Numbered from the whole stretch's first letter, positions 1,507 through 63,591 are shown. The stretch: DNA of 63,591 nt, filler included, from Myxococcota bacterium (GCA_023150835.1; 3 parts of 3 records of this genome joined end to end with filler, not necessarily neighbours in it); one strand, 5' to 3'. Notes: generated by a model from the letters alone, not told the origin. Numbers and translations: made by a program.

Positions 1507-1627
1507 TACGATCTCCGAGAAATCTGTACTCGAAACGTCGGCACGATTTGTTGTAGACGCCCTGTGGTTGGGCAGTCACGGGGGGCTGCCCCTACATCTT
1601 CCGTGTACACGATGGGCGGATTTCGAA
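1507..1627 (-). mobile_element. Family C miniature element carrying a GTAG-type REP hairpin
   Basis: Ends TACGATCTCC...GGATTTCGAA; internal GGGCAGTCACGGGGGGCTGCCCCTAC; similar to 14441-14553 and 50624-50744. Confidence 0.6.
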
Positions 1628-1649
1628 TAATCCTCACAGAGAAAAAACA

Positions 1650-6214: not shown

Positions 6215-8545
6215 TTAAGGGCGTCCACAAGCGCTTTGTGTTCCATCAGGACGGACACAAGGGGCGTTCGGCTGGCAAAAGGGTTTGGAGCAACACAAGA
6301 CGGGGGGTTGGACGTAGACGCACACTCCATTTTGGCAGTCTTCACCTTGGTTGCAATCACAAGCATTCAGGCAGCTTTGTTGGGAACAGTAGGCCAACTG
6401 ACCTTGGGCATCTTCGCAGCGATTCCCGGGAGGACAGAAGGGCTTGTCGCAACAATAGATCCGCGATCCAGAAGTGACGATCGTGCAGCGCCCGCGCACG
6501 CAAGATTGCCCTTGGTTGGGACAATCGCACGCACTTTGACAGGACGCTGTGGGGCAAAGGGCGGCTTGGTTTTGAGCGTTAAAACAAGCCTGCCCTTGAG
6601 GACATCCGACTTTGTCGCAACAATAGACCGCAGGGAAAGTGCCGATACATTGGCCGCGATAACAATCGTCGCCTTGGGGACAGTCACACGGCGAAGCGCA
6701 GGTCGATTGGGGGGTGCAAGTCGCCCACTGATTGCTTGCGTTGCGACAACGCTCGCCTTGGGGACAGCCCGATTGACCGCAACAATAGACGGGCGGACTG
6801 GTCGTCAAACAGATACCGCTGCGGCAATCTTCGCCTTGCGCGCAATCACACGGAGATTGGCAACGACGCGCTGCGCACTGCCCGACCTGACCGTTGGCTT
6901 GGTAGCAGAATTGATCCAACGGACAACCTGCATTGGAGCAACAATACGCCCCTCCAAGCCCGGGATCTTGATTGCAAAGGCCATTGATACAAGTCGCTCC
7001 TTGGGGACAATCGCAAAGCGTGTTGCAGGGTGCAGGGCAAAAGCCCGATTGCATCGTCTTGTTTTCGCAGCCTTGCCCTTGGGGACAGCCTTCTTTGTCA
7101 CAACAAAAAGCCGGTTGTGCGCTGGTTTTGCATTGCCCGCCTGTACAAGCCTCGCCTTGAACACAATCGCAAGCACTCCGACAAGGACGCGGTCGTTGCG
7201 GGCAGATCGCAACAGAGCCTGTCTTGTCTTTGCACGTCGCTGTGGGTGGACAGCCTTGGGCGTTGTCACAACAATACATCGGCGCGGGGCCGCGAAAGCA
7301 CTTGCCGTTGGAACAGTCGTAGCCTTCGGGACAATCACACGGCGAAACGCACAGCAACGGACACTTCCCCGCAGCACTCGCCGAAGTGTAGCACGTCGCA
7401 CCACCCGGACAGCCCGGGTTCTCACAACAATATCCGGGAAAAGAAGACTTAAAGCACTTGCCCTCGACACAGTACTGACCCTGTGGACAATCGCACAACG
7501 TCGCGCAGCTTTGGGGTGGAGCGCACAGCCCTGTCCCCAAACCACAAAGCCCGACATCTTGCGTTGTTTTCGTCACGCAGACGCCACCGATACACCGTCC
7601 ATCGGACTTTTCGCACAGCTTGCCGATCTGTTGACAAGGGCGGGTCGGGCAGTCCTGATCTTTTTGACAAGCAGGCCCCTCAACACACTTCCCTGCGTCC
7701 TTGTCGCATCCGCCTTTTTTGGGGGTGCGTTGGACATCGCACTTTGCATCGACGCAGCGCGCCAAGACTTCGGCGCATCCTTGCGGGCCTTGCTCACAAC
7801 CCGAGATGCCGCAATCGCGATCTTTGATACAAGCAGGCGCTGGCGCACACTTTCCGTCCGAATCATCGGGCGTTTTGCAAGCCGCTCCCGCAGGACAACC
7901 CGCCTTCGAACAACAATACACGGGCGACTCTCCCCCCACACAACGGCCCTGCACACACGCCTCGCCTTGTGGACAATCGCAGGTCTTTTGACACGCAGGC
8001 TTTTCTCCGCAAACGCCCAAGCTACCGTCACTTCGCTGACACGCTCCTTGTTTACACTCCTCTGGACGCGAACAACACACCACCTTTTGGCCTAGCTTCG
8101 AGCACTGCCCACCTTCGCAAGAAAGCCCCACCGCACAATCACACACGCTCTTGCAAACACGCCCAGCCTCACCGCATATTCCGCTGCCTGTTCGCGGAGA
8201 GCGACACGCCTCCCCCACCACGCAGCCCGCCTTATCGCAACAATACACCGCCACCGCCACTTGGTTGCATACGCCGCCCTCACACCCTTCCCCTTGCTTG
8301 CAATCACAAGGATGCGTACACGCCCTCGGCTCCCCAGCCACCCCATCTACGGGGCTTTCGTTCGCCCCCTCGCTCACACCTTCGATGCCGTCTTTGGAAA
8401 CCCCACTGTCTCCGTCGCGTTCTTCTCCCACACCTTCCGCGCTAGACTCCGTGGGGGGGCCTCCGTCACAACGGCATCCCACCGCAACCACCGCCCACAC
8501 ACCGATCACAAACAACCAACCCCGCAAACGCCAAACCCGCTCCAT
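6215..8545 (-). CDS. Cys-rich repeat lipoprotein (11 CDC/YCC repeats)
   Basis: AAGGAGG RBS before ATG 8545, lipobox VAVGC, repeated CxxxCDCxQGxxCxxGxC...YCCxxxxCPxGxxC. Confidence 0.88.
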   Translation of the reverse strand: MERVWRLRGWLFVIGVWAVVAVGCRCDGGPPTESSAEGVGEERDGDSGVSKDGIEGVSEGANESPVDGVAGEPRACTHPCDCKQGEGCEGGVCNQVAVAVYCCDKAGCVVGEACRSPRTGSGICGEAGRVCKSVCDCAVGLSCEGGQCSKLGQKVVCCSRPEECKQGACQRSDGSLGVCGEKPACQKTCDCPQGEACVQGRCVGGESPVYCCSKAGCPAGAACKTPDDSDGKCAPAPACIKDRDCGISGCEQGPQGCAEVLARCVDAKCDVQRTPKKGGCDKDAGKCVEGPACQKDQDCPTRPCQQIGKLCEKSDGRCIGGVCVTKTTQDVGLCGLGTGLCAPPQSCATLCDCPQGQYCVEGKCFKSSFPGYCCENPGCPGGATCYTSASAAGKCPLLCVSPCDCPEGYDCSNGKCFRGPAPMYCCDNAQGCPPTATCKDKTGSVAICPQRPRPCRSACDCVQGEACTGGQCKTSAQPAFCCDKEGCPQGQGCENKTMQSGFCPAPCNTLCDCPQGATCINGLCNQDPGLGGAYCCSNAGCPLDQFCYQANGQVGQCAARRCQSPCDCAQGEDCRSGICLTTSPPVYCCGQSGCPQGERCRNASNQWATCTPQSTCASPCDCPQGDDCYRGQCIGTFPAVYCCDKVGCPQGQACFNAQNQAALCPTASCQSACDCPNQGQSCVRGRCTIVTSGSRIYCCDKPFCPPGNRCEDAQGQLAYCSQQSCLNACDCNQGEDCQNGVCVYVQPPVLCCSKPFCQPNAPCVRPDGTQSACGRP

Positions 8546-8671
8546 CTCGATCCTCCTTTCGTGCGCAACTGCGCCACAAAACACAAGGATCTCCAAGGTC
8601 TAGAATCCATCCCCCTTTTATCGTCTCCCCTGATCTCCATCGAAGTGATGCAGCCGACAAAAAGACGCGCC

Positions 8672-9100: not shown

Positions 9101-9958
9101 TCAATCCAAAGCAAACAGCAGCACAACAAACCAAGAACTAAAAAACACCAAACACCACCGACAGATCAAGAAGTTCAGCGCTTCGGTATGTTGGCGGCGA
9201 CGATACCAATCGTCGTCTTGGCGAAGAAACAGCCACATTGCTCCCCAAAACAACACCCCCACCCACAACATCACACAATGCACCGCAAAGATCTCATAAA
9301 AGTACGGTCCATCGGGCGCAGCGTACGCGATCGTCCGCTCAAAAGACCACCCAAGTCCAAGGATCAAGATCATCCACTCCACAAATCCCCGCAACGTCGC
9401 CTTGCGCTCGCGTTGCTCGACTTGCTCTTGGTGCATCTCTCCCTCTGCTTCGGGAACTGGCGCTTCTGCAAACGAAAACACCAACCGAAACCACTTGGAG
9501 ATCCGCGTCGGTTCGCCCCGAAACTCTTCATCCTCCACAACAGGCACCACATACGCATCCAAGACCGACGGGCCAAAACCAAAGATCCCGTACAGCCGCG
9601 AATTATACACCAAAGCACCCACCAAAAGACTCAACGCAAAAAGCTGGATCTTGAGATTCAGATCCCACGCACCAAAAAGCAAAAACCCAGACCACAACCC
9701 CCCTCCCAACAAGCCACACACCGCCCACTTCAACGGGATCTTCTCCTCGTCATACGTCGCAGGTTCATGCGTCACTTTAAAACTGAAATCTCCCGGAAGC
9801 GAACCCTCCTGTAGATCGCGCAGTCCGCCTTTTCCACCGCCTTGCAAATCGTGCAGGCCGCCTTTTGCATTGCCTTGCAGATCGCGTGGATCGTTGTTTC
9901 TGCGATCTTGGTGTGGCTTGTCTTCTTCGATCGGAAATCCCAAAGGATCTTTTCGCAT
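9101..9958 (-). CDS. Hypothetical multi-pass membrane protein
   Basis: About 5 hydrophobic segments; start placed at MRKDPLG because the upstream ORF extension runs through a repeat element. Confidence 0.65.
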   Translation of the reverse strand: MRKDPLGFPIEEDKPHQDRRNNDPRDLQGNAKGGLHDLQGGGKGGLRDLQEGSLPGDFSFKVTHEPATYDEEKIPLKWAVCGLLGGGLWSGFLLFGAWDLNLKIQLFALSLLVGALVYNSRLYGIFGFGPSVLDAYVVPVVEDEEFRGEPTRISKWFRLVFSFAEAPVPEAEGEMHQEQVEQRERKATLRGFVEWMILILGLGWSFERTIAYAAPDGPYFYEIFAVHCVMLWVGVLFWGAMWLFLRQDDDWYRRRQHTEALNFLICRWCLVFFSSWFVVLLFALD

Positions 9959-10038
9959 CGCTCTCACCCTTCTGCCCTTTATTTCTCCACCGCCTCTTTG
10001 GATGGTACTGCGCTTTGTGCAGAATTGTGCTATCCATG

Positions 10039-10190
10039 AGGGCTTGCGCGGTTGGATTCGGTTTTGTAGGGTGCGACCCCACACCCCGCAAGGGAACTTC
10101 GTCCCCTTGACCCCCGTGTTGGCGAAGAGATCATCGTTTTTCACACCAACAACGCTGTCGCTCGTAACGGGCGCGAACACGAGGTTTTTG
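10039..10190 (+). repeat. Family B intergenic repeat, uninterrupted copy (empty MITE target GGGTGCGACCC at 10069-10079)
   Basis: CCCCACACCCCGCAAGGG..CCCCTTGACCCCCGT..GGCGAAGAGATCA..GTTTTTCA..CAACAACGCT.TCGCT matches 28242-28335 and 50488-50580. Confidence 0.85.
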
Positions 10191-10298
10191 TCCATCAGTG
10201 ACAAATCTATCAAAAGAAAAGATCGTCACGCCTTTTATAACACAGATCAAGCCCTCGCTTTGCTTGGTTGTTCTCTTGTTTGTTGGGTAGGATTTCTC

Positions 10299-11561
10299 AT
10301 GGATCGTTTTGTCTTTTCAATGAACTCGGAACCTCCGAACCTATCGTTCCATCCGCCACAAGGATCGAAGCGCCTCACGCAACAGGGTTGGTTTGGTTTT
10401 CGGACAGTTCTGTGGCTTAGTTGCTTTGGCTGGCTCAACATCATGGGCTGCCCGCCAACTCCGACAGTCGAATGCGATGCCAAGACAGCTTGCCCGCAAG
10501 GAAAGCGTTGTGTCGAAGGGGCGTGTCTTTGTGTCGCAGGATACACCGATTGCAACAAGGCTTGCGTGGATCTTCAAACAGATACCGCACATTGTGGTGC
10601 TTGTGGTGGCGTGTGCAAAACAAGCGAAACCTGCCGTCAAGGTGTTTGTGTGCCGATCTGTACCCCGCCGCAAGACGACTGTGGCGGGCGCTGTGTGGAT
10701 CGCAGCAACGACGCCGCACACTGCGGAAGTTGCAACAACGCCTGCGCTCCAACAACGCGATGCCAGCGCAGTTTGTGTGTATCGCCCTGCCCTGCGGAGC
10801 AGCTCTTTTGCGGAGGTTTGTGCATCGATCCCAAAAGTCGCCGTACACACTGCGGAACGTGCGGCAATACCTGTGAGATCGGAAAGTCTTGTGCAAATGG
10901 GGATTGTGTGGCGGCGTGTCCGCCTGACGCAACCGACTTGTGCGAAGGTGGATGTGTGGATCTTCAGTCCAACCCGCTGCATTGTGGCGGATGCAACAAA
11001 GCCTGCCCCAGCGGTCTTCTTTGCAACAAAGGCCGTTGTGTTTGTCCATCCGACCGTTCGGAGTGCGGGGGCAACTGCATCGATCCCCAAGCAGACGCCC
11101 AACACTGCGGCAGATGCAACAGCGCCTGCCCATCAGGACAATTCTGTGCGGCGGGTGTGTGTGTGGCGTCTTGCCCGAGTGCCTCATCTACAAACTGTTC
11201 GGGCGGATGCTTCGACCTCCAAAGTGCGAACGCACATTGCGGGATATGCGGAAATGCTTGCACAGCAGGACAAGTCTGTATCGCGGGACGTTGTAGCTGT
11301 CCGCCCCAAACGACCCTATGCAACGGCCTTTGCGTCGATCTCCAACACGATGTACTGCATTGTGGTTTATGCCAAAATCGCTGTGCGGGTGGGAATGTTT
11401 GTGCAGCGGGCCGTTGTGTGGCGAATTGCCCCCAAGACACCGCCTCCGCTTGTTTGGGCGGATGCTTCGATCTGCTCAAAACAGACCGACATTGTGGCGC
11501 ATGTCACAACGCTTGCCCTCGTGACGCAACATGCCAAAATGGTCGTTGTATCGCCCCTTAA
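10299..11561 (+). CDS. Cys-rich lipoprotein with Stig1/MXAN_6577-like repeats
   Basis: Repeated CVDLQxDxxHCGxCxxxC units; lipobox-like IMGC; start uncertain. Confidence 0.85.
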   Translation: MDRFVFSMNSEPPNLSFHPPQGSKRLTQQGWFGFRTVLWLSCFGWLNIMGCPPTPTVECDAKTACPQGKRCVEGACLCVAGYTDCNKACVDLQTDTAHCGACGGVCKTSETCRQGVCVPICTPPQDDCGGRCVDRSNDAAHCGSCNNACAPTTRCQRSLCVSPCPAEQLFCGGLCIDPKSRRTHCGTCGNTCEIGKSCANGDCVAACPPDATDLCEGGCVDLQSNPLHCGGCNKACPSGLLCNKGRCVCPSDRSECGGNCIDPQADAQHCGRCNSACPSGQFCAAGVCVASCPSASSTNCSGGCFDLQSANAHCGICGNACTAGQVCIAGRCSCPPQTTLCNGLCVDLQHDVLHCGLCQNRCAGGNVCAAGRCVANCPQDTASACLGGCFDLLKTDRHCGACHNACPRDATCQNGRCIAP

Positions 11562-14377: not shown

Positions 14378-14440
14378 TCCTCGTGCCTTCTGTCAACCAG
14401 TATAGGACTTACGCAGTTCGATGGTTTTCGTGGGGTGTCA

Positions 14441-14553
14441 TACGAAATCCGCCCGTTGCGTGATCGTAAAAATGTAGGGGCAGACAGGCGTGGCTGCCCA
14501 ACAATCGGGCGTCTTCGCGCTCTCCTTCGATCACAGATCACTTGGATATCGTA
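14441..14553 (+). mobile_element. Family C miniature element with 3-bp TCA duplication
   Basis: TCA|TACGAAATCC...GGATATCGTA|TCA; internal GTAGGGGCAGACAGGCGTGGCTGCCC; preceded by family B left end AGGACTTACGCAGTT at 14404. Confidence 0.75.
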
Positions 14554-14566
14554 TCATCCGTCCGTT

Positions 14567-15805
14567 TTACGGGGCTGCGACACAACGCCCCGCAGAAGCG
14601 GCACATACCAAACCCATTGGACACTTCGGCGCACCGCTTGAGCAAGGGTACACACAAAATTTTTCGTTGGTACTTTGCACGTTTTCACATTTGGTATCCG
14701 CAAGGGAAAGGCACTGAGATTGCGCAGAACAAGGGCGCAAGCAAACGCCCTTCCCTGCGGTCTGATCGCGTACACAATACAAGTTTTCTTTGCAACCTTC
14801 CGTTGCGACGCGGCTTGGGTCAAGAGAACACACCTCGCCATGATCTCGCGGACCAGCGCTACACGGCGGTTGTTGCTCGTCCAGCAAGCGCCCGTCGCAA
14901 TCGTTGTCCATCCCATTGCAAGCCTCTGCTTGGGGTTTGACTTCGCCTTCACAAGCCCCCCATTGCCCCGCCGTACACTTCTGCTCACCCGATCGGCAGA
15001 TCCCCCGCGTGTCCGTATTAAACGGACCCGAATAACAAGGCCGTGAAAGCGATTCATCCACCTTGCCGTCGCAATTGTTGTCTTTGTTGTCGCAAGCCTC
15101 GGGCTTTGGCGTGATCTCGTTTTCGCACGTCGTGGACCACCGCCCTCCTACACAGCGTTGGATGCCTTGTTTGCACTCGCCCACACCACGCGTCGCAGAG
15201 GCCCCCGTATAACAATCCCGTGTCTCACTGCCTTGACAAGCGGGCATCGGCTCAAAGAGCGGTTCTTCGGGCGTAGGGGATTCTTGTTCGGGGATGGACT
15301 CTTGGGCCTCCGAAACAGGCTCTTGCTCGGACTGGACTTCGCCTGCATCGCTGGACTCGCCTGTTTTGATGCAGATACCGCCTCGGCACGCCTCTTCCGC
15401 AAGGCACTTGGACCCGCAACCACCGCAGTTTTGCGGATCGCTTCGCGTATCGGCACAAGCGTTATTGCACAAACGTGTGCTTTCTTCGGGACAGCATAAC
15501 TCGCTCAAACAGCGCTGTTTCTCAACACAATCCTTGTCTTGTTTGCAAGAAACAGGGATCAAAACGCAGCTTTCTTCTACACAACGCCGCCCCGACGGAC
15601 ATTCGGTGTCTGCTTTGCAAATCTTCGAGCATCGGCCACTTGCACAACGATACGTCGCAAAGAACCCACAATCGGACTCTTTGGAACAAGGCCACCCTGA
15701 CAGATCAACACTTCCCCCCAAGCAAGCCGACCACCACGGCACACCCACCAAAAAAAACCATCCCAACACTCGGCGTATCCGCTTGTTTTTCTCCATGCTC
15801 GACAC
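14567..15805 (-). CDS. Cys-rich lipoprotein with MopE-like metal-binding repeats
   Basis: WSAC lipobox; EACDNKDNNCDGKVDE and EACNGMDNDCDG motifs. Confidence 0.85.
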   Translation of the reverse strand: MSSMEKNKRIRRVLGWFFLVGVPWWSACLGGSVDLSGWPCSKESDCGFFATYRCASGRCSKICKADTECPSGRRCVEESCVLIPVSCKQDKDCVEKQRCLSELCCPEESTRLCNNACADTRSDPQNCGGCGSKCLAEEACRGGICIKTGESSDAGEVQSEQEPVSEAQESIPEQESPTPEEPLFEPMPACQGSETRDCYTGASATRGVGECKQGIQRCVGGRWSTTCENEITPKPEACDNKDNNCDGKVDESLSRPCYSGPFNTDTRGICRSGEQKCTAGQWGACEGEVKPQAEACNGMDNDCDGRLLDEQQPPCSAGPRDHGEVCSLDPSRVATEGCKENLYCVRDQTAGKGVCLRPCSAQSQCLSLADTKCENVQSTNEKFCVYPCSSGAPKCPMGLVCAASAGRCVAAP

Positions 15806-22555: not shown

Positions 22556-22655
22556 NNNNNNNNNNNNNNNNNNNNNNNNNNNNNNNNNNNNNNNNNNNNT
22601 TAATTAATTAANNNNNNNNNNNNNNNNNNNNNNNNNNNNNNNNNNNNNNNNNNNN
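22556..22655. other. Artificial contig-joining linker
   Basis: 44 N + TTAATTAATTAA + 44 N. Confidence 0.97.
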
Positions 22656-22859
22656 GCCCTCCCCCGTGAACAGGGGAGGGAGCGAAAGTCGGAAGCCTCG
22701 GGGATTTTGTTTTTTCATGACGCACGCTGTATGCACGAAATGCAGACGCTGCCCGTTCCAACTTCCCCCCGTTCACGGGGGGATTGAGGGGGGGGAGAAA
22801 AAAAGAAAAGGCGATCAAGACCGACTCTACGAGGTTTTCACCTTAACCTAACGCCTATG
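22656..22859 (+). mobile_element. Family A MITE, 5' part lost at contig end
   Basis: Shared internal sequence; ends CTTAACCTAACGCCTATG followed by GGGCGCTGCCC. Confidence 0.88.
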
Positions 22860-22941
22860 GGGCGCTGCCCCATACCCCGCCCCCTTAGCGCGGCTCCCTT
22901 GACCCCGTATGGACGGGACGAACAGACGTTTTTCAAACCAA

Positions 22942-27989: not shown

Positions 27990-28050
27990 CTCACCGACTT
28001 CTCTCAACATAGGACTCGCACAGTTCAGTCGTTGTTGTGGGGCTTTTCCC

Positions 28051-28241
28051 CATAGGCGTTAGGTGAAGCGGAGGAAAGCCCCCCACCCCGCCCTCCCCCG
28101 TGAACAGGGGAGGGAGCGAAAGTCGGAAGCATCGGGGATTTTGTTTTTTCATGACGCACGCTGTATGCACGAAATGCAGACGCTGCCAAAAGGCGATCAA
28201 GACCGACTCTACGAGGTTTCCACCTTAACAAGGCGCGTATG
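28051..28241 (+). mobile_element. Family A MITE (internally deleted), 11-bp TSD GGGCTTTTCCC
   Basis: CATAGGCGTTAGGT...AACAAGGCGCGTATG; TSD at 28040-28050 and 28242-28252. Confidence 0.92.
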
Positions 28242-28398
28242 GGGCTTTTCCCCACACCCCACAAGGAGTGACAGCCCCCTTGACCCCGTATTTGGCGAAG
28301 AGATCACTGTTTTTCAAACCAACGACGCTCTCGCTTGAACTTACGCAAATACGGGGATTTTTCGAAAAAACGCCCCGATCACCCACCCATCGGCCCGA

Positions 28399-32554: not shown

Positions 32555-32586
32555 TTCGACACATCACAAAATGTAGGGGCTGCCCC

Positions 32587-32829
32587 CATACGCGCCTTGT
32601 TAAGGTGGAAACCTCGTAGAGTCGGTCTTGATCGCCTTTTTTTTTTCTCCCCCCCCCCTCAATCCCCCCGTGAACGGGGGGAAGTTGGAACGGGCAGCGT
32701 CTGCGTCTCGTGCATACAGCGTGCGTCATGAAAAAACAAAATCCCCGAGGCTTCCGACTTTCGCTCCCTCCCCTGTTCACGGGGGAGGGCGGGGTGGGGG
32801 GCTTTCCTCCGCTTCACCTAACGCCTATG
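32587..32829 (-). mobile_element. Family A MITE (243 bp), 11-bp TSD GGGGCTGCCCC
   Basis: TSD at 32576-32586 and 32830-32840; inserted in a GTAGGGGC REP-like hairpin. Confidence 0.93.
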
Positions 32830-33108
32830 GGGGCTGCCCCCATAGGATATCGTGTGAGTCCGCAAGCAACGCTTTTTCGGAATAGATCGCAAAGGTTCAC
32901 GGAAAAGGTGGCGACGTCTGCTTTTTCGACGACCCATCGCCGCTCCCAAAAGACAGACCCATCCGTGTGATCTCTCAACTCCACCGACCGCCCATCACTC
33001 ACCAAGCAGCCAAGATTCCCATCGTATCGAGAAGATCGTCTTGTCATTGCGATGCGCACACGTCTTGCGATAACGCCCGATGAACCTTGCCGATCCGCAA
33101 ACAGCGAA

Positions 33109-38896: not shown

Positions 38897-41800
38897 CTAA
38901 GAAAGACGTTCCAAACGCGACAACCATTCACACACGCCCAGCAACAACACACTTTCCTCCGAATCATCAAAGACCGCACTCACAAGGCCCAAAAGACCCG
39001 CCTGAAGCTGCACTTGCTCTCGCTTTTGTACAATCAGCGCGATCGGGATATCGCCCCACAACGGATTGGAGCGCATCGCACGTAAAAAAGCAAAACTGTC
39101 CAACGAAGACACCGCCACATCGATCAAGATCGCATCGGGAGTTCCCCGATTTAAGGCGCTCACCGCTTCATTTCCGTTGCGTGCGATCACGGGAAACCAA
39201 CCCACCCCATGCAACCGCTCCGAAAGCAGATGGCCCAAACGCTCGTTGCTCTCGATGATCAATACTTTTTGTTGCCCAGAACTCACAGACAGCGTCCGCA
39301 AATTCTGCAACAACAGTCCCCGATCCACGGGCTTGGTCATATAACCCGAAGCTCCCCACGCAAACCCTTGGCTCTTGTTGTCCAACATCGACAAGATCAA
39401 CACAGGGATCCGTGCAAGCGCTTTGTCTTGCTTCAAACGCTTGAGTACGCTCCATCCGTCCAAACCCGGCAAGATCACATCCAAGGTGATCACCTGTGGT
39501 CGCAAAGCAGAAGCCATCTCAAGGGCCGTTTCTCCATCCCGCGCAAGCGCCACCCCAAAACCTTCGCGTGTCAAGATCCGCGTCATCAAATCCAACATCG
39601 CAGGATCATCATCCACCACCAACACCAACGGCATCGGATGCCCCTGCCCTTCCGCAGCAGACGTAGCTCCAGAAACAGGCATCACCCCTTCTCGAACCAC
39701 GTGGCTTGCCTCAAACACTCCGCTCCCCCACTTCGTCTTCTCCGCCCCCACAGCCGCCGCTGGTTCTCGTCCCGCCCCCACAGCCGCCGCTGGTTCTCGT
39801 CCCGCCCCCACAGCCGCCGTTGGTTCTCGTCCCCCCCCCACAGCCACCGAGGGTTCTCGTTCCACCAAAGCAGAAGAGGGGGGCGGCAAAGAAAGCGTAG
39901 GCAGCGACAAGACAGGATTTGAGATGCGTGTACCGCGCAAGGTCGGTTCGGGTTGGATAGTGGGAAGCGAAAAGGCGGATGTCTTTTTGATCGGGTTGGG
40001 GTGCGAACTTGTCGGAGAGGTCAGGGGTTCTGCGGGCTGCTCTTCTGTGGGTGGGAAGGAAGGCAAAGGAAAGGGAGTCGAGCGATTGACACGAAAAGAT
40101 GCAGGCGGAACGGCTGAGATGCGGCTATTGTGATCGGAGGATCCGCCTGTGCGCAAGGCAGGGTGGGTTCGCCGCAATTCTTTTGGCGGGGACTCCGCCG
40201 CCGCTCGTTGCAACGGCTCTTGTTCGGTCGAAGAGCGCCGTTGGTTCGGGGTTTCGGGCGAAGAACGTTGCAGCGGCGAGGTTTCGGGCGAAGAACGTTG
40301 CAGCGGCGAGGTTTCGGGCGAAGAACGTTGCAGCGACGAGGTTTCGGGCGAAGAACGTTGCAGCGACGAGGTTTCGGGCGAAGAACGTTGCAGCGACGAG
40401 GTTTCGGGCGAAGAACGTTGCAGCGGCGAGGCTTCGGGCGAAGAGTGTAGGGATTCATGCTCGGTCGAAGAACGCCGCAGGGTCGGGGTTTCCGTCGAAG
40501 AGCGCCGTAGGGTCGGGGTTTCCGTCGAAGAGCGCCGCAGGGTCGGGGTTTCCGTCGAAGAACGCCGCAGGGTCGGGGTTTCCGTCGAAGAGCGCCGTAG
40601 GGACGAAGTTTCAGAGGAAGAGTGTAGAGGTTGATGTTCGGTCGAAGAGCGCCGCAGATCGGTGGGTAGAGGGGGAGAAAGAGGTGGGTGATCGCTCTTG
40701 GCTCCGAGTCCGATCACGACACGAGGAGCGGAAGGTGCGGGATCGCCGAGAGATGCGTTGGATTCTCGGCTGCGCGGTGCAGGTTCGAGATCGACGGCGA
40801 GGTTTTGCGGCAAAAAGACCGTAAAGCGCGAGCCTTTCCCCGGGAGGCTATCGACTTCGATATCTCCCCCCATCATCCGGCAAAAATGCCGACTGATCGC
40901 CAACCCAAGCCCTGTACCGCCGTACTTTCGGCTTGTCGAAGAATCTGCCTGAGAAAAAGCCCGAAACAACAGCTTTTGCTGTTCCTGTTCGATCCCGATG
41001 CCTGTGTCCTCGACAGAAAACACCACCCACTGTTGTCCCCCACGCCGTATCTCGCTGATGCGCAAATTGACCTCGCCCTGTTGCGTAAACTTGCAAGCGT
41101 TGGACAACAGATTGAGCAATACTTGGCGCACCTTGGTTGGGTCGCACAAAAACTCTTGGGGCTCGGCTTCCATCTTCAACGAGAGGCGGTTTTGATTTTT
41201 CTCTGCAAGCGGTCGGATCGTCGTCATCACGTCATGGATCATGTCGCGCAGTCGCACAAACTCCATAAACAATTCCATCCGCCCCGCCTCGATCTTCGAG
41301 AGATCGAGAACATCGTTGACCAGCGCCAACAAGTGCTTGCCCGAGGCGTTGATCTTTTCCAGATCGGTCACGAGATCTTCGTAACATCCCTGCTGGATAT
41401 CCTCTTGCATCATCTCGCTGTACCCGATGATTGCGTTGAGTGGCGTGCGCAACTCGTGGCTCATATTCGCCAAGAATTGGCTTTTGGCGTTGTTCGAGGC
41501 TTCTGCACTTTCTTTGGCTTTGCGGAGTTCTTGCTCGATGCGCTTGGTCTCGCTGACATCGGTCGACACCGAGACTCCGCCCACCACCGCCCCCTCTTCG
41601 TCAAAAAGCGGCGTATAATACGCCTCAAAAAACGCTCCTTCGATCTCAAGGATCGTAAAGATCGCCTCCCCTCCCAAGACACGCTCCGCGCAATGGCGAA
41701 TGGTTTCGTTGCCCAAGGATACGATCGACTGCCCCACAAGCTCGGCGCTATTCCAGCCGATCTGATGAAGGTTCCGCCCCAACGCCAACGTGATCACGCC

Positions 41801-42376
41801 CGCTCCATCGAAGACAAAGAAATGGATCGGAGCGCTATCCAAGATCATCTGCATCCATGCTTGATTTTCTTCGAGTGCTTCTTCGGCGCGTTTGCGTTCG
41901 GTCGACTCAAGCCCCGTCCCCAACACCAAGCGGCGCCCCTTAAAAATGATCGGAGCCAAGGTCAGATCCAACCAACCGATCCCACCGTCGCGCCGCTGAA
42001 AAGCGATCTCAAAACGCCGCTCTCCAAATTGATGCCGTAAAGACACCAACGCATCGTGAAGCTGGGCGCGTTCCTCTTCGGCGATCAGTTCCCAAAAAAC
42101 CCCTTCGATCAGCTCGTCGCGTGTGTAGCCCGTCAACCGAACCAACGCAGGATTGACATACAACAGCTCCGTATCATGCAATACAAATGTCGCAGCAGGC
42201 GATATCTCGGCCATGATCTGAAATTCTTCGCTGTCCAACTCGCGTTTGGGGGTTGTCTGCCAACGCGCTTGTTCCTCCGCCAACAGCGCCATCATCTCTT
42301 CGTAGGCCTCTTCATCTTTACAAAGCTGCCTCAAGCGCCCACGCGACTCTCGATCCACGCCAGCCTCCGCATCCAT
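38897..42376 (-). CDS. Hybrid PAS-PAS histidine kinase with repetitive linker and two receivers
   Basis: [28 protein letters not shown]; receiver VVDDD/TLDV; second, degenerate receiver. Confidence 0.93.
40200..40660 (-). repeat. 30-bp coding tandem repeats ([10 protein letters not shown] / [10 protein letters not shown])
   Basis: About 15 ten-residue units in the kinase linker. Confidence 0.9.
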
Positions 42377-50012: not shown

Positions 50013-50244
50013 CCCTTCGCTCTCCAAACATCCAGCGTCTACACAACGAGGCCACTCAACATAGCCCCACAACATCGACCCCACCGCACAGATGGCATCA
50101 AGTCATCCCCCCTACAAACCACAACCACCAACCAAACGCAAATTTCTCACCCGCTCCCCTCTGCTCACACAACAACGCCATCATTTCGGTTTTTGCGAGG
50201 ATTTTTGCGAGGATTTTTGCGATGGTGTTTGTGGGGTTTCACCC

Positions 50245-50487
50245 CATAGGCGTTAGGTGAAGCGGAGGAAAGCCCCCCACCCCGCCCTCCCCCGTGAACA
50301 GGGGAGGGAGCGAAAGTCGGAAGCATCGGGGATTTTGTTTTTTCATGACGCACGCTGTATGCACCAAATGCAGACGCTGCCTGCCCGTTCCAACTTCCCC
50401 CCGTTCACGGGGGGATTGAGGGGGGGAGAAAAAAAAAGGCGATCAAGACCGACTCTACGAGGTTTCCACCTTAACAAGGCGCGTATG
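50245..50487 (+). mobile_element. Family A MITE (243 bp), 11-bp TSD GGGTTTCACCC
   Basis: TSD at 50234-50244 and 50488-50498; inside a family B repeat. Confidence 0.93.
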
Positions 50488-50623
50488 GGGTTTCACCCCA
50501 CGCCCCACAAGGGACTATCGCCCCTTGACCCCGTATCGGCGAAGAGATCAGGCGTTTTTCAAAACAACGACGCTCTCGCTTGGAGGGCCGCGAACACGGG
50601 GTTTTTTCTCAGCATAGGACTCA

Positions 50624-50744
50624 TACGAAATCCACAGGGTGCGTGATCGCAAAACGTAGGGGCAGCCCCCTGTGGCTGCCCGAAAACAGGGCAGTTACAG
50701 CGGATCGCACCTACCCTTCGCGTACACATCTTTCGGATATCGTA
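50624..50744 (+). mobile_element. Family C miniature element
   Basis: TCA|TACGAAATCC...GGATATCGTA|TAA; internal GTAGGGGCAGCCCCCTGTGGCTGCCC. Confidence 0.7.
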
Positions 50745-50862
50745 TAAACCATCCGTTCCTCCTCAAACAATCAACCAACAAACCGTGCGAAGAGGTCTTC
50801 TTGCGGGTGCCACACTCGCTTTCCTCTTCTTCCCACCCATGCAGCCACCTGTCCCCCTCAGA

Positions 50863-51897
50863 TCAGCCTTCTTCCTTCGTCGCTGTGGGTTCTCCCACCG
50901 CTTGCGCTTGCAGCTTCGCTACCGCTTCCGCCGCCAGCCCCGTCACTTTCGTGATCTGCTCCATCCCCAGTCCCATCTCCAGCAGCCGCAACGCCATCTC
51001 CCGCTTTTCTTCTTCTCGTCCCTGCTGCAAACCCTGCTGCAAACCCTGCTGCAAACCCTGCTGCAAACCCTGCTGCAAGGCTTGTTGTTTCACATAATCG
51101 ATCAAAGGATTTTGTTCCAACCAACTCATCTTAATCTCCTCCAAAATCTCCGATATCGCAAAGACACGCGCAAAAAAGAACGCCGCCATCGCCAACAGAT
51201 CTTGCTTGCGATCTTCTTGCGCCTCACTTCCCATAATGGCCTCTGCAAGCCGTTTGATAAAGGGTTTTTTCGCACCTTTCATCAATGCCGCAAAAGGCAG
51301 CAGATACATCGGCGCTTCTTTGACGAACGCCTCCGCATCATATCCCCCCGGCAACCACACCTCTCTCCATCGCACCGAGGCGTGTAGCTCCCCCTGCAAC
51401 ACCATCGTTTCCTCGCACCTTCGCTGCCAAGCGCCCTCTGGCCAATACGACGGCGCATCCACACCCACCTGCCAGACAATGTGCATCACCGGTAACTTTT
51501 CCTTTTCATACAATCCCCAACCATACATCCCCAAACGCCGACCCATCCGAGGATTGTACGACGATTCAAACTCCAGATGTACCAAAAAGCTCTCTTCCTC
51601 CCCATCCTTCTGCGTCTTCACCCGATACACCCGATCCGTCAAACGATGCGTCATCTCCACTTCCCCGCCCACCGCTTCACACGACGCTATCCCCTCGATA
51701 CCCCCCAGATATCCCACCAGTTCCGCACCATACGCATCTGCCAACCGCTTCATCATCTCATCGAATGGCGTCCGCTCTTTCTTCTCCTCGCCCTCGCTCT
51801 TTCCTGCTTCTCCAACCTCGCTTTCTTCTTCAACCTCTCCCGTCTCTCCAACTTCTCTTGCTTCTGCACTCTCAACGCGCTTTCTGCTTTTTCTTTC
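50863..51897 (-). CDS. Rpn-like PD-(D/E)XK nuclease / putative transposase, 5' end cut by contig break
   Basis: PFDEMMK, TDRVYRV, VHLEFES, GLQQ repeats and C-terminal MALRLLEMGLGMEQITKVTGL; frame open up to the gap. Confidence 0.75.
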   Translation of the reverse strand, partial: ERKSRKRVESAEAREVGETGEVEEESEVGEAGKSEGEEKKERTPFDEMMKRLADAYGAELVGYLGGIEGIASCEAVGGEVEMTHRLTDRVYRVKTQKDGEEESFLVHLEFESSYNPRMGRRLGMYGWGLYEKEKLPVMHIVWQVGVDAPSYWPEGAWQRRCEETMVLQGELHASVRWREVWLPGGYDAEAFVKEAPMYLLPFAALMKGAKKPFIKRLAEAIMGSEAQEDRKQDLLAMAAFFFARVFAISEILEEIKMSWLEQNPLIDYVKQQALQQGLQQGLQQGLQQGLQQGREEEKREMALRLLEMGLGMEQITKVTGLAAEAVAKLQAQAVGEPTATKEEG

Positions 51898-51898
51898 T

Positions 51899-51998
51899 NN
51901 NNNNNNNNNNNNNNNNNNNNNNNNNNNNNNNNNNNNNNNNNNTTAATTAATTAANNNNNNNNNNNNNNNNNNNNNNNNNNNNNNNNNNNNNNNNNNNN
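51899..51998. other. Artificial contig-joining linker
   Basis: 44 N + TTAATTAATTAA + 44 N. Confidence 0.97.
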
Positions 51999-52136
51999 GC
52001 TGGCAAGATACGAAAGGAGACGGAAAGATCGGATGGCAGAAGCTGTGGGAAGGTTACGAGCAATTTCTCGACATCCTCCAAGGATGGGAAATGTCAAAAA
52101 CATCAAGTGCATAGAAAAGAAGTGTCCAAGAGAAAG
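51999..52136 (+). mobile_element. 3' end of IS4-family (IS50/Tn5-like) insertion sequence
   Basis: 52001-52114 reads WQDTKGDGKIGWQKLWEGYEQFLDILQGWEMSKTSSA*, like the Tn5 transposase C-terminus; the end (reverse strand CTTTCTCTTGGACACTT) resembles the Tn5 end CTGACTCTTATACAC. Confidence 0.8.
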
Positions 52137-60671: not shown

Positions 60672-61102
60672 GCCCACGCAAAAGATAGCGCGCAGCCTCC
60701 AAAAAGCCAAAGAAAAAAGCGAGAAACATGGCGAAAGGTGAGCGGATCCACAAAGGAAAAGTATGTAGGAATGCGTTATGGGGGGGATTTTTGTTCACTG
60801 CGCCACTTCGATTCACAGTCGTGTCGTTTGAATAGGCGTGAAAACACGGGGGTTTTTGAAACAGTGTCGATCCGAAGTGAGAGAGGCGGAGAGGCAGGAG
60901 AGGCGGGTATGTCCGCTTGCGGGGGGATGGTTGTACGAAATCCGTTCATTGTGTGATCGTAAAGACGTAGGGGCAGACAGGTGTGCATTTGATCCGACGA
61001 ATTGGACGTCTTTTTACGAAGAATTTGATTTTATTGAAAAAAATGGCGGCACGTCGTTTGACCCTCACCCCCATAGGCGTTAGGTGAAGCCACAGCTGGC
61101 CC

Positions 61103-61688
61103 CTCTTACATGGGTACAAAACGCGGGCATCACGCAGAGGATATCGAAAAGAAGAGTCCACGGAAAGCACGGAAAGCACGGAAAGTACGGAAAGTACGGA
61201 AAGTACGGAAAGTACGGAAAGTACGGAAAGTACGGAAAGTACGGAAAGTACGGAAAGTACGGAAAGTGCGGAAAGTGCGGAAAGTACGGAAAGTGCGGAA
61301 AATGCGGAAAGTGCGGAAAGTGCGGTAAGTACGGAAAGTGCGGAAAGTGCGGAAAGTGCGGAAAGTGCGGAAAGTGCGGAAAGTACGGAAAGTACGGAAA
61401 GTACGGAAAGTACGGAAAGTACGGAAAGTGCGGAAAGTACGGAAAGTACGGAAAGTACGGAAAGTACGGAAAATACGGAAAGTACGGAAAGTACGGAAAG
61501 TACGGAAAGTACGGAAAGTACGGAAAGTGCGGAAAGTGCGGAAAGTACGGCGACGGGGTTTCTCTGTGCGCTCAGACTTTCTGCCTTCCTCCCCCTCGCG
61601 GCAGCAGCGAGGCTTTGCGAGCGTCGCAGGGAGAGGGGTGTCGCGAAGCGACGGAGTGAGGGTCACGCGATTTGTCCCCCAGTAAGAG
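61103..61688. mobile_element. Family E element with 23-bp terminal inverted repeats
   Basis: CTCTTACATGGGTACAAAACGCG ... CGCGATTTGTCCCCCAGTAAGAG (19/23 complementary). Confidence 0.65.
61159..61550. repeat. 9-bp minisatellite (CGGAAAGTA/CGGAAAGTG), about 43 units
   Basis: Direct inspection. Confidence 0.97.
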
Positions 61689-61804
61689 CCAAAGACCGTG
61701 AACAGGGGAGGGAGAGAAAGTCGGAGGCAGCGAGGTTTTGGTTTTCCATGCTGTAGGCTGTTTGCACAAGAGATCGTCTTTGCCTGCTCCAACTTCCCCC
61801 CGTA

Positions 61805-61900
61805 GGGGGGATTGAGGGGGGATTGAGGGGGGATTGAGGGGGGATTGAGGGGGGATTGAGGGGGGATTGAGGGGGGATTGAGGGGGGATTGAGGGGGGGG
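61805..61900. repeat. 11-bp tandem repeat (GGGGGGATTGA) x8
   Basis: Single unit in other family A copies. Confidence 0.95.
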
Positions 61901-62323
61901 CGAGCAAAAGAAAAGGCGATCAAGACCGACTCGACGAGGTTTCCACCTTAACAAGGCGCGTATGACCCTCACCCCCCCAGCCCCCCTCTCCCTGCTGTCG
62001 CTCTTGCGAGGATGGAGAAAAAAGCGTACGGATGGCAGAGACTTTGGCTTTGCTTTCCCCATAACGCACAGCAAACCTTGTTTGCGCTTGTGGGTCATGG
62101 GGATGTCCGCCTTTGACAGGGGTGAGGTGCGAAACCCCGCACTGCCCGATATGATCGTTCGCAGGTTTGAACTCGAAATGAATTCGTTGGAGCAAATGCC
62201 CCGTGGCTGCCCAATCACAGGGCGTTTACAACAAACCGCATCGACGCTTGTGGATACGCTTTTGACGGATATTGTAGGAATTATGATCGCAAACCTTTGT
62301 GTACACATCACTCGGGTATCGTA

Positions 62324-63256
62324 TTATTTGCACTGGCCGTTTTGGCAGACTTGGCCAGCGGCGCAATTGGCGTTGCTTGTGCAGGGGGTGGTGTGAGGTT
62401 GGCATTGGCCATTTTGGCAGACTTGGCCAGCGGCGCAATCGGCGTCGCTTGCGCAGGGGGTGATGTGAGGTTGGCATTGGCCGTTTGAGCAGACTTGGCC
62501 AGCGGCGCAATCGGCGTTGCTTGCGCATGGCGGCGGAACAACGGGCTTGCAGGAGCCTGCTTTGCAACCTGTGCCGATGCCACATTTTTGGCCGCAAGCA
62601 CCGCAATGATCGTTGTTGGTTTGGAGATCGACGCAGATCGAGCCACAACGGGTCTGACCAGACGGGCAAGTGCAGTTGTTGTCGATTACGCCGTCGCAGT
62701 CGTCATCAAGGCCGTTGCAGATCTCTGTCGAAGCTTTACAAGCGATGTCGCATTTCCCGCTGCTTTGGTTCTTGACGAAGTTTGTGTTGCATTGGCAAGT
62801 TCCGTCTTTGAGGCAAGTTCCCGCTAAGGCCGACATCTCAAGACGGTGGTTGCAGGTTTGATCTTGGCCGAATGTGCAGACAGGCTGGGTGACGGCCTTG
62901 CATTGGCCGTTTTGGCAGACTTGGCCCGTGGGGCATTCTGCGTTGCTTTGACAGGGTTTGGTGACGGCCTTGCATTGTCCGTTTTGGCAGGTTGAGCCGA
63001 TGCCGCATTTGGTTGCGCAGGCACCGCAATGATCGTTGTTGGTGCGCAGATCGACACAGGCCGAGCCGCAGGAAGTGCCGCCTGTTGCAGCGCAGGGATC
63101 GGCTTGAGCGATGCAGGTTCCATTTTGGCAGATGTATTTAACTGGGCAATCTTTACCGGTAATACATTCTTGGACGACACCACAGCCAGAAAAAGAGGTC
63201 AGCCAAAGGCAACAAACAAGGGCCAATGGAATGGGATAAAAACGCAATCGATACAT
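62324..63256 (-). CDS. Cys-rich lipoprotein (Stig1-like, MopE-like and CxSNADC repeats)
   Basis: GGAG RBS, FSGC lipobox, CVDLxTNNDHCG, EICNGLDDDCDG. Confidence 0.88.
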   Translation of the reverse strand: MYRLRFYPIPLALVCCLWLTSFSGCGVVQECITGKDCPVKYICQNGTCIAQADPCAATGGTSCGSACVDLRTNNDHCGACATKCGIGSTCQNGQCKAVTKPCQSNAECPTGQVCQNGQCKAVTQPVCTFGQDQTCNHRLEMSALAGTCLKDGTCQCNTNFVKNQSSGKCDIACKASTEICNGLDDDCDGVIDNNCTCPSGQTRCGSICVDLQTNNDHCGACGQKCGIGTGCKAGSCKPVVPPPCASNADCAAGQVCSNGQCQPHITPCASDADCAAGQVCQNGQCQPHTTPCTSNANCAAGQVCQNGQCK

Positions 63257-63454
63257 GGTTATACTCCGATAAGGTCCATCGTGCTTGTGGATACGCCGCT
63301 TGGGGCGTTGTGATCAGGTGAACGAATGGTCTTGCAAGATCCTTCGATCTCATTGACAAGGCAGCCCTTGAAAATCGAACCCAAAGAAAAAAAAAGAGGA
63401 GATCTGCTCCAGAGAGGAGCGAGGCAGTTTCATGGTGTTTGTGGGGCATTGCCC

Positions 63455-63591
63455 CATAGGCGTTAGGTTAAGCGCTTGTTGGCCCCCCCACCCCAGCCCT
63501 CCCCCGTGAACAGGGGAGGGAGCGAAAGTCGGAAGCAGCGGGGATTTTGTTTTTTCATGACGCACGCTGTATGCACGACGCGCAGACGCTG
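63455..63591 (+). mobile_element. Family A MITE, cut by window edge
   Basis: GGGCATTGCCC followed by CATAGGCGTTAGGTTAAG and shared internal sequence. Confidence 0.9.

Follow-up and report, generated by a model that had tools for sequence, protein, structure and literature searches.

Insertion sequences of the IS231 subgroup of the IS4 family are tabulated with CAT ends and 10–12-bp direct repeats (Table 1, PMC2266710), and the same source gives Y-2-R-3-E-6-K as the hallmark of the family and describes cut-and-paste chemistry for IS231A (PMC2266710). The IS231 transposase is reported to mobilize non-autonomous derivatives in trans (PMC6199540). IS421 is assigned to the IS4 family, IS231 subgroup, with a DR of 10–12, and its copies are given as 99% identical to IS186 (PMC6352166). 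For IS186 itself, a target of GGGG(N6/N7)CCCC was derived from 59 reconstructed sites, and insertion occurs in both orientations (PMC5009759). REP sequences are also described as targets of insertion sequences, including ISPpu9/10, ISPa11, ISPsy8, ISRm19 and ISRm22 (Tobes and Pareja 2006, PMC1525189). IS4, IS231 and IS186 are absent from a 2024 review of prokaryotic MITEs, and our searches of open-access text brought up no account of MITEs that descend from IS186/IS421-like elements.

We analyzed a stretch of 63,591 nucleotides from a Myxococcota bacterium, here called the window. By reading, alignment and blastn, one element with CAT...ATG ends was found in six copies in these 63.6 kb. We are highly confident that it is a MITE of the IS4 family and IS231 subgroup, IS186/IS421-like, that would depend on a DDE transposase supplied in trans from elsewhere in the genome. 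As is typical of MITEs, it is short and gene-less, and has terminal inverted repeats and locus-specific duplications of fixed length. The copies are the following.

22657–22859, plus strand: MITE copy; left part lost in the assembly gap 22556–22656 (N...TTAATTAATTAA...N), right side abutting a family-B repeat
28051–28241, plus strand: MITE copy of 191 bp, a deletion derivative without 52 bp that include hairpin 2
32587–32829, minus strand: intact MITE copy of 243 bp, directly after the GTAG head of a family-C-like repeat
50245–50487, plus strand: intact MITE copy of 243 bp, used as the reference
61072–61964, plus strand: MITE copy, long variant of 893 bp
63455–63591, plus strand: MITE copy cut by the window end and preceded by a family-B head

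An initial annotation of the window had proposed six copies of one element, and this was borne out by reading and aligning the copies and by six exact matches to the left-end 18-mer (K at position 15). In 100 dinucleotide-preserving shuffles of the window, 0.05 such matches were expected and none of the shuffles reached six; the right-end 18-mer has four exact matches, with a shuffle expectation of 0.07. The proposed intact length of 243 bp applies to copies 32587 and 50245, but not to copies 28051 (191 bp) and 61072 (893 bp). Copy 28051 is 99.3% (137 nt) and 100% (54 nt) identical to copy 50245 in blastn, and identity between copies falls to 89.8% for copy 63455 and much lower for copy 61072. 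The missing parts of copies 22657 and 63455 are artefacts of the assembly and the window: these two do abut GGGCGCTGCCC and GGGCATTGCCC, as had been noted, but their truncation is not biological, the cuts being an assembly gap and the end of the window. Runs of N around the TTAATTAATTAA linker at 22556–22656 and 51899–52000 mark joined contigs; the first break falls inside a MITE copy and the second touches no copy.

All six copies lie outside Pfam-supported genes, which agrees with the proposal that none is in a gene, and none of the six is nested in another copy. The genes of the window include those for Ser/Thr kinases, cysteine-rich repeat proteins, hybrid histidine kinases, RecA and MutS2, a content compatible with a Myxococcota host though not proof of one. 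The window also contains repeats of other types. Tandem arrays of a 30-bp unit (39712–39891 and 40163–40680) occur inside an ORF for a 1159-aa hybrid histidine kinase (38897–42376, minus strand), between the kinase and receiver domains. Repeats of ~160 nt occur in cysteine-rich ORFs at 6215–8596 (minus strand), 9402–11561 (plus strand), 14567–15805 (minus strand) and 62324–63256 (minus strand). Pfam matches of these ORFs are Stig1, Dickkopf_N, DUF7107 and Cu-binding_MopE; the ORF at 6215–8596 has no Pfam match, and the same DNA repeats are present in it. A 12-bp tandem repeat, (CCCTGCTGCAAA)n with ~6 copies (51008–51087), is located in an ORF-rich stretch without Pfam matches.

The sequences immediately adjoining the ends of the element are as follows.

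28040–28050 and 28242–28252: 11-bp duplication GGGCTTTTCCC, flanking copy 28051
32576–32586 and 32830–32840: 11-bp duplication GGGGCTGCCCC, flanking copy 32587
50234–50244 and 50488–50498: 11-bp duplication GGGTTTCACCC, flanking copy 50245
61061–61071 and 61965–61975: 11-bp duplication ACCCTCACCCC, flanking copy 61072
22860–22870: single flank GGGCGCTGCCC, adjoining the incomplete copy 22657, in a family-B repeat
63444–63454: single flank GGGCATTGCCC, adjoining the incomplete copy 63455, in a family-B head

Read base by base, the duplications are perfect (11/11) in all four complete copies and no two loci are alike, exactly as the initial annotation described them. An alternative delimitation with 13-bp duplications and AT...AT ends fits copies 28051 and 50245 and fails at copy 32587, whereas 11 bp with CAT...ATG ends suits every complete copy and was adopted. 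CAT begins each of the ten ends present in the window, and both this and the length of the duplications (11 bp in 4/4 copies, within the range of 10–12) are as in the IS231 subgroup. The left and right 18-nt ends of one copy are identical at 12/18 positions, consistent with the imperfect inverted repeats reported initially. One end had been misassigned: the right end of copy 22657 is of the canonical CATAGGCGTTAGGTTAAG type, not of the CATACGCG type, and is identical at 18/18 positions to the left end of copy 63455.

The usual right end of the MITE matches the consensus end at 13/18 positions. The positions common to every end compared (those of the MITE, its relatives and IS421) are CATAnGCG.....T.AAG, and because the diverged right end keeps them, its use by the same transposase as the left end is plausible. 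TAA is found at positions 15–17 in 5/5 right ends and in 1/5 left ends (copy 63455), and the other four left ends have GAA. At positions 11–12 the ends of the MITE have AG or TT where the subgroup signature has AA; this signature, CAT-------AA--TAA---, is thus partly matched by the MITE, and it is fully matched by IS421. Directly after the right duplication of copy 32587, at 32841–32846, is CATAGG, the first six letters of the end of the element, which may be a chance occurrence or the stump of an older insertion.

Two GC-rich hairpins, inverted relative to each other, are carried by each intact element, in line with the initial description of its interior. In the reference copy 50245 they are:

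50285–50308: hairpin 1, CCCTCCCC-N8-GGGGAGGG
50397–50414: hairpin 2, CCCCCCG-TTCA-CGGGGGG

It had been suggested that the element both carries and targets REP-like hairpins. The targeting part stands, but the carried hairpins have CCC...GGG polarity and there are zero GGG-N5-CCC sites within the element, so the MITE does not carry its own target. The MITE folds modestly better than shuffled sequences, with z of −2.2 to −2.3. These folding values, the GC-rich hairpins and the GTAG-headed REP-like repeats in the surroundings could also indicate an element of the REP/BIME type, with a RAYT (Y1, IS200/IS605-like) as its transposase, or a structured regulatory RNA gene. We consider this highly improbable, given that REPs are not characterized by 11-bp duplications, nor by CAT ends like those here, which are identical to the ends of DDE IS4 elements, and that the GTAG-headed palindromes are the targets and neighbours of the element and not the element itself. 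Furthermore, copy 50245–50487 has no Rfam match at E≤1, and a scan of 50100–50800 identified no promoter-like or terminator-like site inside it. At the gathering score, Rfam yielded nothing in the whole window except one tRNA. A match to a miRNA family at E≤1 in 50200–50760 lies in a family-C palindrome and is spurious.

As expected for a MITE, the copies show no similarity to a transposase in tblastn with a related transposase, and their longest internal ORFs have no Pfam family match except for a repeat artefact in the long copy. The 893-bp variant shares 19 nt on the left, 134 nt in the middle (78%) and 83 nt on the right (93%) with the other copies in blastn, and contains two minisatellites.

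61160–61550: minisatellite 1, 9-bp unit × 43.4, 95% matches
61804–61898: minisatellite 2, 11-bp unit × 8.6, 100% matches

The 11-bp array is an expansion of sequence that adjoins hairpin 2. Across the 9-bp array runs an ORF (61084–61659) that encodes (GKY/GKC)n and matches the Pfam collagen repeat with 66.9 bits; the match is probably a repeat artefact, and the ORF might conceivably be a passenger of the long variant.

The target proposed initially, GGG-N5-CCC, is present at five of the six insertion flanks, the exception being ACCCTCACCCC, which has no G-block. The same motif, GGG(N)5CCC, is reportedly the one preferred by IS231A (Hallet et al. 1994). There are 14 distinct GGG-N5-CCC sites in the window when duplicates are collapsed, and the element is in 5 of them; eight sites are outside Pfam-supported genes, of which five are occupied. 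The unoccupied sites include those at 10069, 1581 and 50659. The motif is not enriched in the window (22 raw matches, compared with 28.5 ± 5.8 in shuffles), and with so rare a motif, five insertions out of six cannot be put down to chance. The reconstructed occupied sites are GGGG-N5-CCCC (28039 and 50233), GGGG-N3-CCCCC (32576) and one without a G-block (61061). The MITE spacer of 5 (or 3) thus differs from the N6/N7 published for IS186. GGGG(N6/N7)CCCC occurs in the window just once with each spacer, both times near 1174, and the element is absent from both sites.

Most of the insertions are in a repeat of ~130 nt, family B, with ~81% identity between copies.

10058–10200: family-B repeat
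22860–22941: family-B repeat
28230–28375: family-B repeat
50476–50615: family-B repeat
63433–63454: family-B repeat
10066–10080, plus strand: empty paralogous target GTAGGGTGCGACCCC, in the head of the fifth family-B copy (10058–10190)

The head of family B consists of GT[AG]G, then GGG-N5-CCCC, then ACACCCCRCAAGG, and the insertions at 22860, 28040, 50234 and 63444 are all at the same point of this head. Four of five family-B copies are thus occupied by the MITE, in the same position and also in the same orientation (4/4, p ~0.125), a regularity that might suggest a composite unit of MITE and family B spread by segmental duplication or recombination. However, the MITE is bracketed at each locus by a duplication peculiar to that locus (CTTTT or TTCAC cores), the family-B flanks of copies 28051 and 50245 are 80.8% identical while their MITEs are 99–100% identical, an empty family-B copy exists, and two MITE copies are outside family B. 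The separate duplications, together with flanks that are less alike than the MITEs in them, practically exclude spread as a composite and support separate, later insertions of the MITE. The single orientation at family B is not predicted by a purely palindromic target.

Distant segments of family B (CCCCGTAT.. / ..ATACGGGG) pair as a long-range stem, and a T-run comes next. Copy B10 has a different stem sequence, and in an RNAalifold comparison of three sequences 1/37 pairs was changed on both sides. Family B, for which no Rfam match was found, may represent a structured RNA or else something terminator-like.

Copy 32587, with its target at 32576, stands directly after the GTAG head of a sequence that resembles a second repeat, family C, the head match being 24 nt long (32563–32586).

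1559–1648, minus strand: family-C repeat
14438–14510: family-C repeat
50620–50700: family-C repeat
60934–60985: family-C repeat
32563–32586: family-C-like head

In family C, a GTAG-headed palindrome, GTAGGGGCAGCCCCCTGTGGCTGCCC, is preceded by conserved sequence. The parts of the repeat are a conserved leader of ~40 nt (..ATACGAAATCC..GTGATCG..) and then the GTAG-headed palindrome GTAGGGGCAGCC..GGCTGCCC, which is REP-like. The claim that every copy sits in another repeat therefore holds for five of six, namely the four in family B and the one at a family-C-like head, and not for copy 61072, whose site (ACCCTCACCCC) has no other copy within the window. Flanks like those of the 61061 site, CCCTCACCCC, also adjoin the end of the element at three loci of other genomes (L003, L010 and L018). 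Since the GGG-N5-CCC sites are mostly at the heads of two intergenic repeat families, the MITE piles up there. Like the REP-targeting insertion sequences, it has a fixed insertion point in short, GC-rich, palindromic intergenic repeats, and ISRm22 is a precedent for this within the IS4 family (PMC1525189). Those elements, by contrast, are autonomous and make 2–6-bp duplications, whereas here a MITE is flanked by 11-bp duplications, and the feature recognized is a short G-block/C-block motif rather than the whole REP.

The absence of a cognate transposase from the window, as initially stated, was confirmed by tblastn, which found no credible candidate (best E 0.007 over 61 aa, in an unrelated ORF). 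We scanned genome contigs with the left end and recovered at least 23 loci, for a collection in which ~35 chance matches are expected overall; by eye, L001, L011, L021 and L023 look like chance matches in coding DNA. At least four distinct loci are full-length elements of 1342–1364 bp that have the same 18-mer at each end, in opposite orientations, from MAGs of uncultured Proteobacteria, Alphaproteobacteria and Chthonomonadaceae. An IS4-family transposase between the same ends, the check that had been suggested, is thus present in full-length elements of other phyla. These and the named relatives, followed by short derivatives, are listed here.

L014/L015: full-length element, 1364 bp; 11-bp duplication AGGGTCGCCCC in L014
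L009: full-length element, 1358 bp; 11-bp duplication GGGGCGCCCCT, intact 407-aa ORF
L003, 2001–3354: full-length element, 1354 bp; both ends, no duplication within 2 mismatches
L010, 2001–3342: full-length element, 1342 bp; both ends, no duplication within 2 mismatches
L024: IS421, 1339 bp, 370-aa transposase; 11-bp duplication GGGGTTGCCCC
L025: Rhizobium element, 1352 bp; duplication ACCTCACGCCC
L006: short derivative, ~211 bp; both ends, no duplication within 2 mismatches, of a family shared with L005
L016: short derivative, 186 bp, from a Hyphomicrobiales MAG; both ends, no duplication within 2 mismatches
L018: short derivative, 149 bp; both ends, flanks that match only with 2 mismatches
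L004: short derivative, ~225 bp by eye; diverged second end, unlike flanks

In L003 one flank is an imperfect inverted repeat of the other (CCCTCACCCC.. / ..GGGGGTGAGG), which would fit an element placed centrally in a palindrome or one that underwent recombination with a second copy. The proteins of L009, L014 and L010, as a group, score 149.5, 132.7 and 118.5 bits with NF033592 ('IS4 family transposase'), for which the cut-off is 115 bits; the L003 protein, with 107.1 bits, is below it. The proteins of the full-length relatives also match PF01609, and the Y-2-R-3-E-6-K signature, YRFRWQIELAFKRMK, is readable in their pairwise alignments. A comparison of the L009 transposase with PDB sequences gave nothing meaningful (best E 0.42).

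Among plasmid sequences, tblastn with the L009 transposase recovered Rhizobium IS4-family elements (64–66% identity), E. coli IS421 (39–43%) and Bacillus IS231-type elements (24–28%, over ~58% of the query). The element is therefore IS231-like, as had been proposed, at the level of the subgroup, in which IS421 is filed; the closest named relative, however, is IS421/IS186 (41% at the amino-acid level) and not IS231 proper (24–28%). IS421, as read in L024, resembles the MITE in its CAT...ATG ends, which match the consensus end at 14/18 positions, and in its 11-bp duplication. The IS421 transposase shares 41% identity with that of L009, which has the exact end of the MITE, and 29% with that of L003. 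Judged by these ends and transposases, the element is a relative of IS186/IS421 and not a member. Unlike the MITE, which is gene-less and has 191–243 bp (893 bp in one copy), IS421 is autonomous, with a transposase, and its two ends match each other for at least 22 nt, compared with differences at 6/18 positions in the MITE. IS231 and MIC231 of the Bacillus cereus group share the CAT ends and 10–12-bp duplications, but MIC231 elements carry passenger genes in 0.7–3 kb whereas the MITE is non-coding, and IS231-type proteins are only 24–28% identical to the transposase of the full-length relatives. The full-length relatives (1342–1364 bp) and IS421 (1339 bp) are smaller than the 1450–5400 bp typical of the subgroup (De Palmenaer et al. 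2008).

The terminal 18-mer of the full-length relatives is identical at 18/18 positions to the left end of copy 63455 and the right end of copy 22657, and at 17/18 positions to the other left ends. Beyond the first 18–33 nt they have no similarity to the interior of the MITE, so none of the full-length elements fetched is a direct parent; nor is the MITE interior shared by any other of the loci fetched. Among the matches listed, autonomous elements with the same 18-nt end are found in other phyla only. The interior of the MITE has no match beyond the ends in plasmids and phages except for one of 37 nt, in which the hairpin-1 module matches an Azospirillum plasmid. A stretch of 77 MITE-encoded residues in a spurious ORF matches one of four candidate proteins (P0121, 85% identity), from a Myxococcota bacterium.

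Based on the known chemistry of related elements, we propose that a DDE transposase from elsewhere in the genome would bind the ends of ~18 bp, cut out the element and join it to the target with 11-bp staggered cuts, about one helical turn apart. Repair of the gaps would then give the 11-bp duplication, and GGG-N5-CCC would result from a transposase that prefers a G-block at one edge of the staggered cut and a C-block at the other. The cut-and-paste chemistry would be analogous to that of IS231A, IS10 and IS50, and we infer mobilization in trans by the transposase. Activity seems to have been recent, judging from the perfect duplications and from copies that are 99–100% identical amid flanks of ~81%.

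Alternatively, these could be real IS4-type MITEs whose cognate transposase has been lost from the host, a fossil family that has long been immobile. Such a history would suit the lack of a transposase in 63.6 kb, copies that differ by up to 10% (89.8% identity for copy 63455) or, in the case of copy 61072, far more, a right end that has drifted to 13/18 of the consensus, and MITE-like relatives in other genomes that are mostly without clean duplications. We think it rather unlikely, though worth weighing, because none of the four complete copies has a mismatch in its 11-bp duplication and two copies are 99–100% identical inside flanking repeats of ~81%. In addition, one contig ends inside a MITE copy, as expected of a high-copy, little-diverged repeat.

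The family may belong to a wider lineage. Short derivatives with the same end were found in other lineages, mostly without clean duplications. L004, L005, L006 and L019 are from one Xanthobacteraceae MAG, and the hairpins of L016 (CCCCCACCCC / CCCTCCCC-loop-GGGGAGGG) resemble hairpin 1 of the MITE in the window. Both GGG and CCC blocks occur within 11 nt of the end at only 8/22 distinct fetched loci among the matches listed, a point against the IS186/IS421-like MITE reading. Flanks of the form GTAGGGGC..CCC adjoin the same end in L002, L007, L008 and L014, from Xanthobacteraceae, Myxococcota and Alphaproteobacteria MAGs. In L008 and L020, which are from one Myxococcota MAG, family-C sequence is directly beside the same end, and 30 nt are shared with the left end of copy 61072 (87%).

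We speculate that the IS186/IS421-like branch of the IS4 family could form one lineage spanning several phyla, with insertion directed to the heads of REP-type palindromes (GT[AG]G, then GGGG..CCC). It would have kept an almost invariant 18-nt end despite transposases of 27–29% identity, and would repeatedly give rise to MITEs that fill these sites to saturation. In favour of this are the occupation of four of five family-B heads, the GTAGGGGC..CCC flanks in three groups and the short derivatives L004–L006, L016 and L018. The L009 and L003 transposases are 27% identical, yet the end is common to both; the loci were picked by an exact-end search, however, so the conservation of the end is in part a selection effect. 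On balance, this wider scenario is doubtful.

The family itself is, as far as open-access text goes, a new MITE family of a known kind, MIC231 derivatives and REP-targeting insertion sequences being already known, and it leaves the accepted view of how such elements work unchanged. For the host, the MITE explains why the genome assembly is interrupted at these repeats, and the presence or absence of individual copies is a marker for strain typing. The locus is also a natural example of target choice in the IS4 family, with filled and empty versions of one site side by side. The occurrence of the same 18-nt end beside REP-like heads in distant phyla may bear on the mutual influence of REP families and insertion sequences; if the cross-phylum homing is true, REP families and this lineage of insertion sequences would be ecologically coupled across bacteria.
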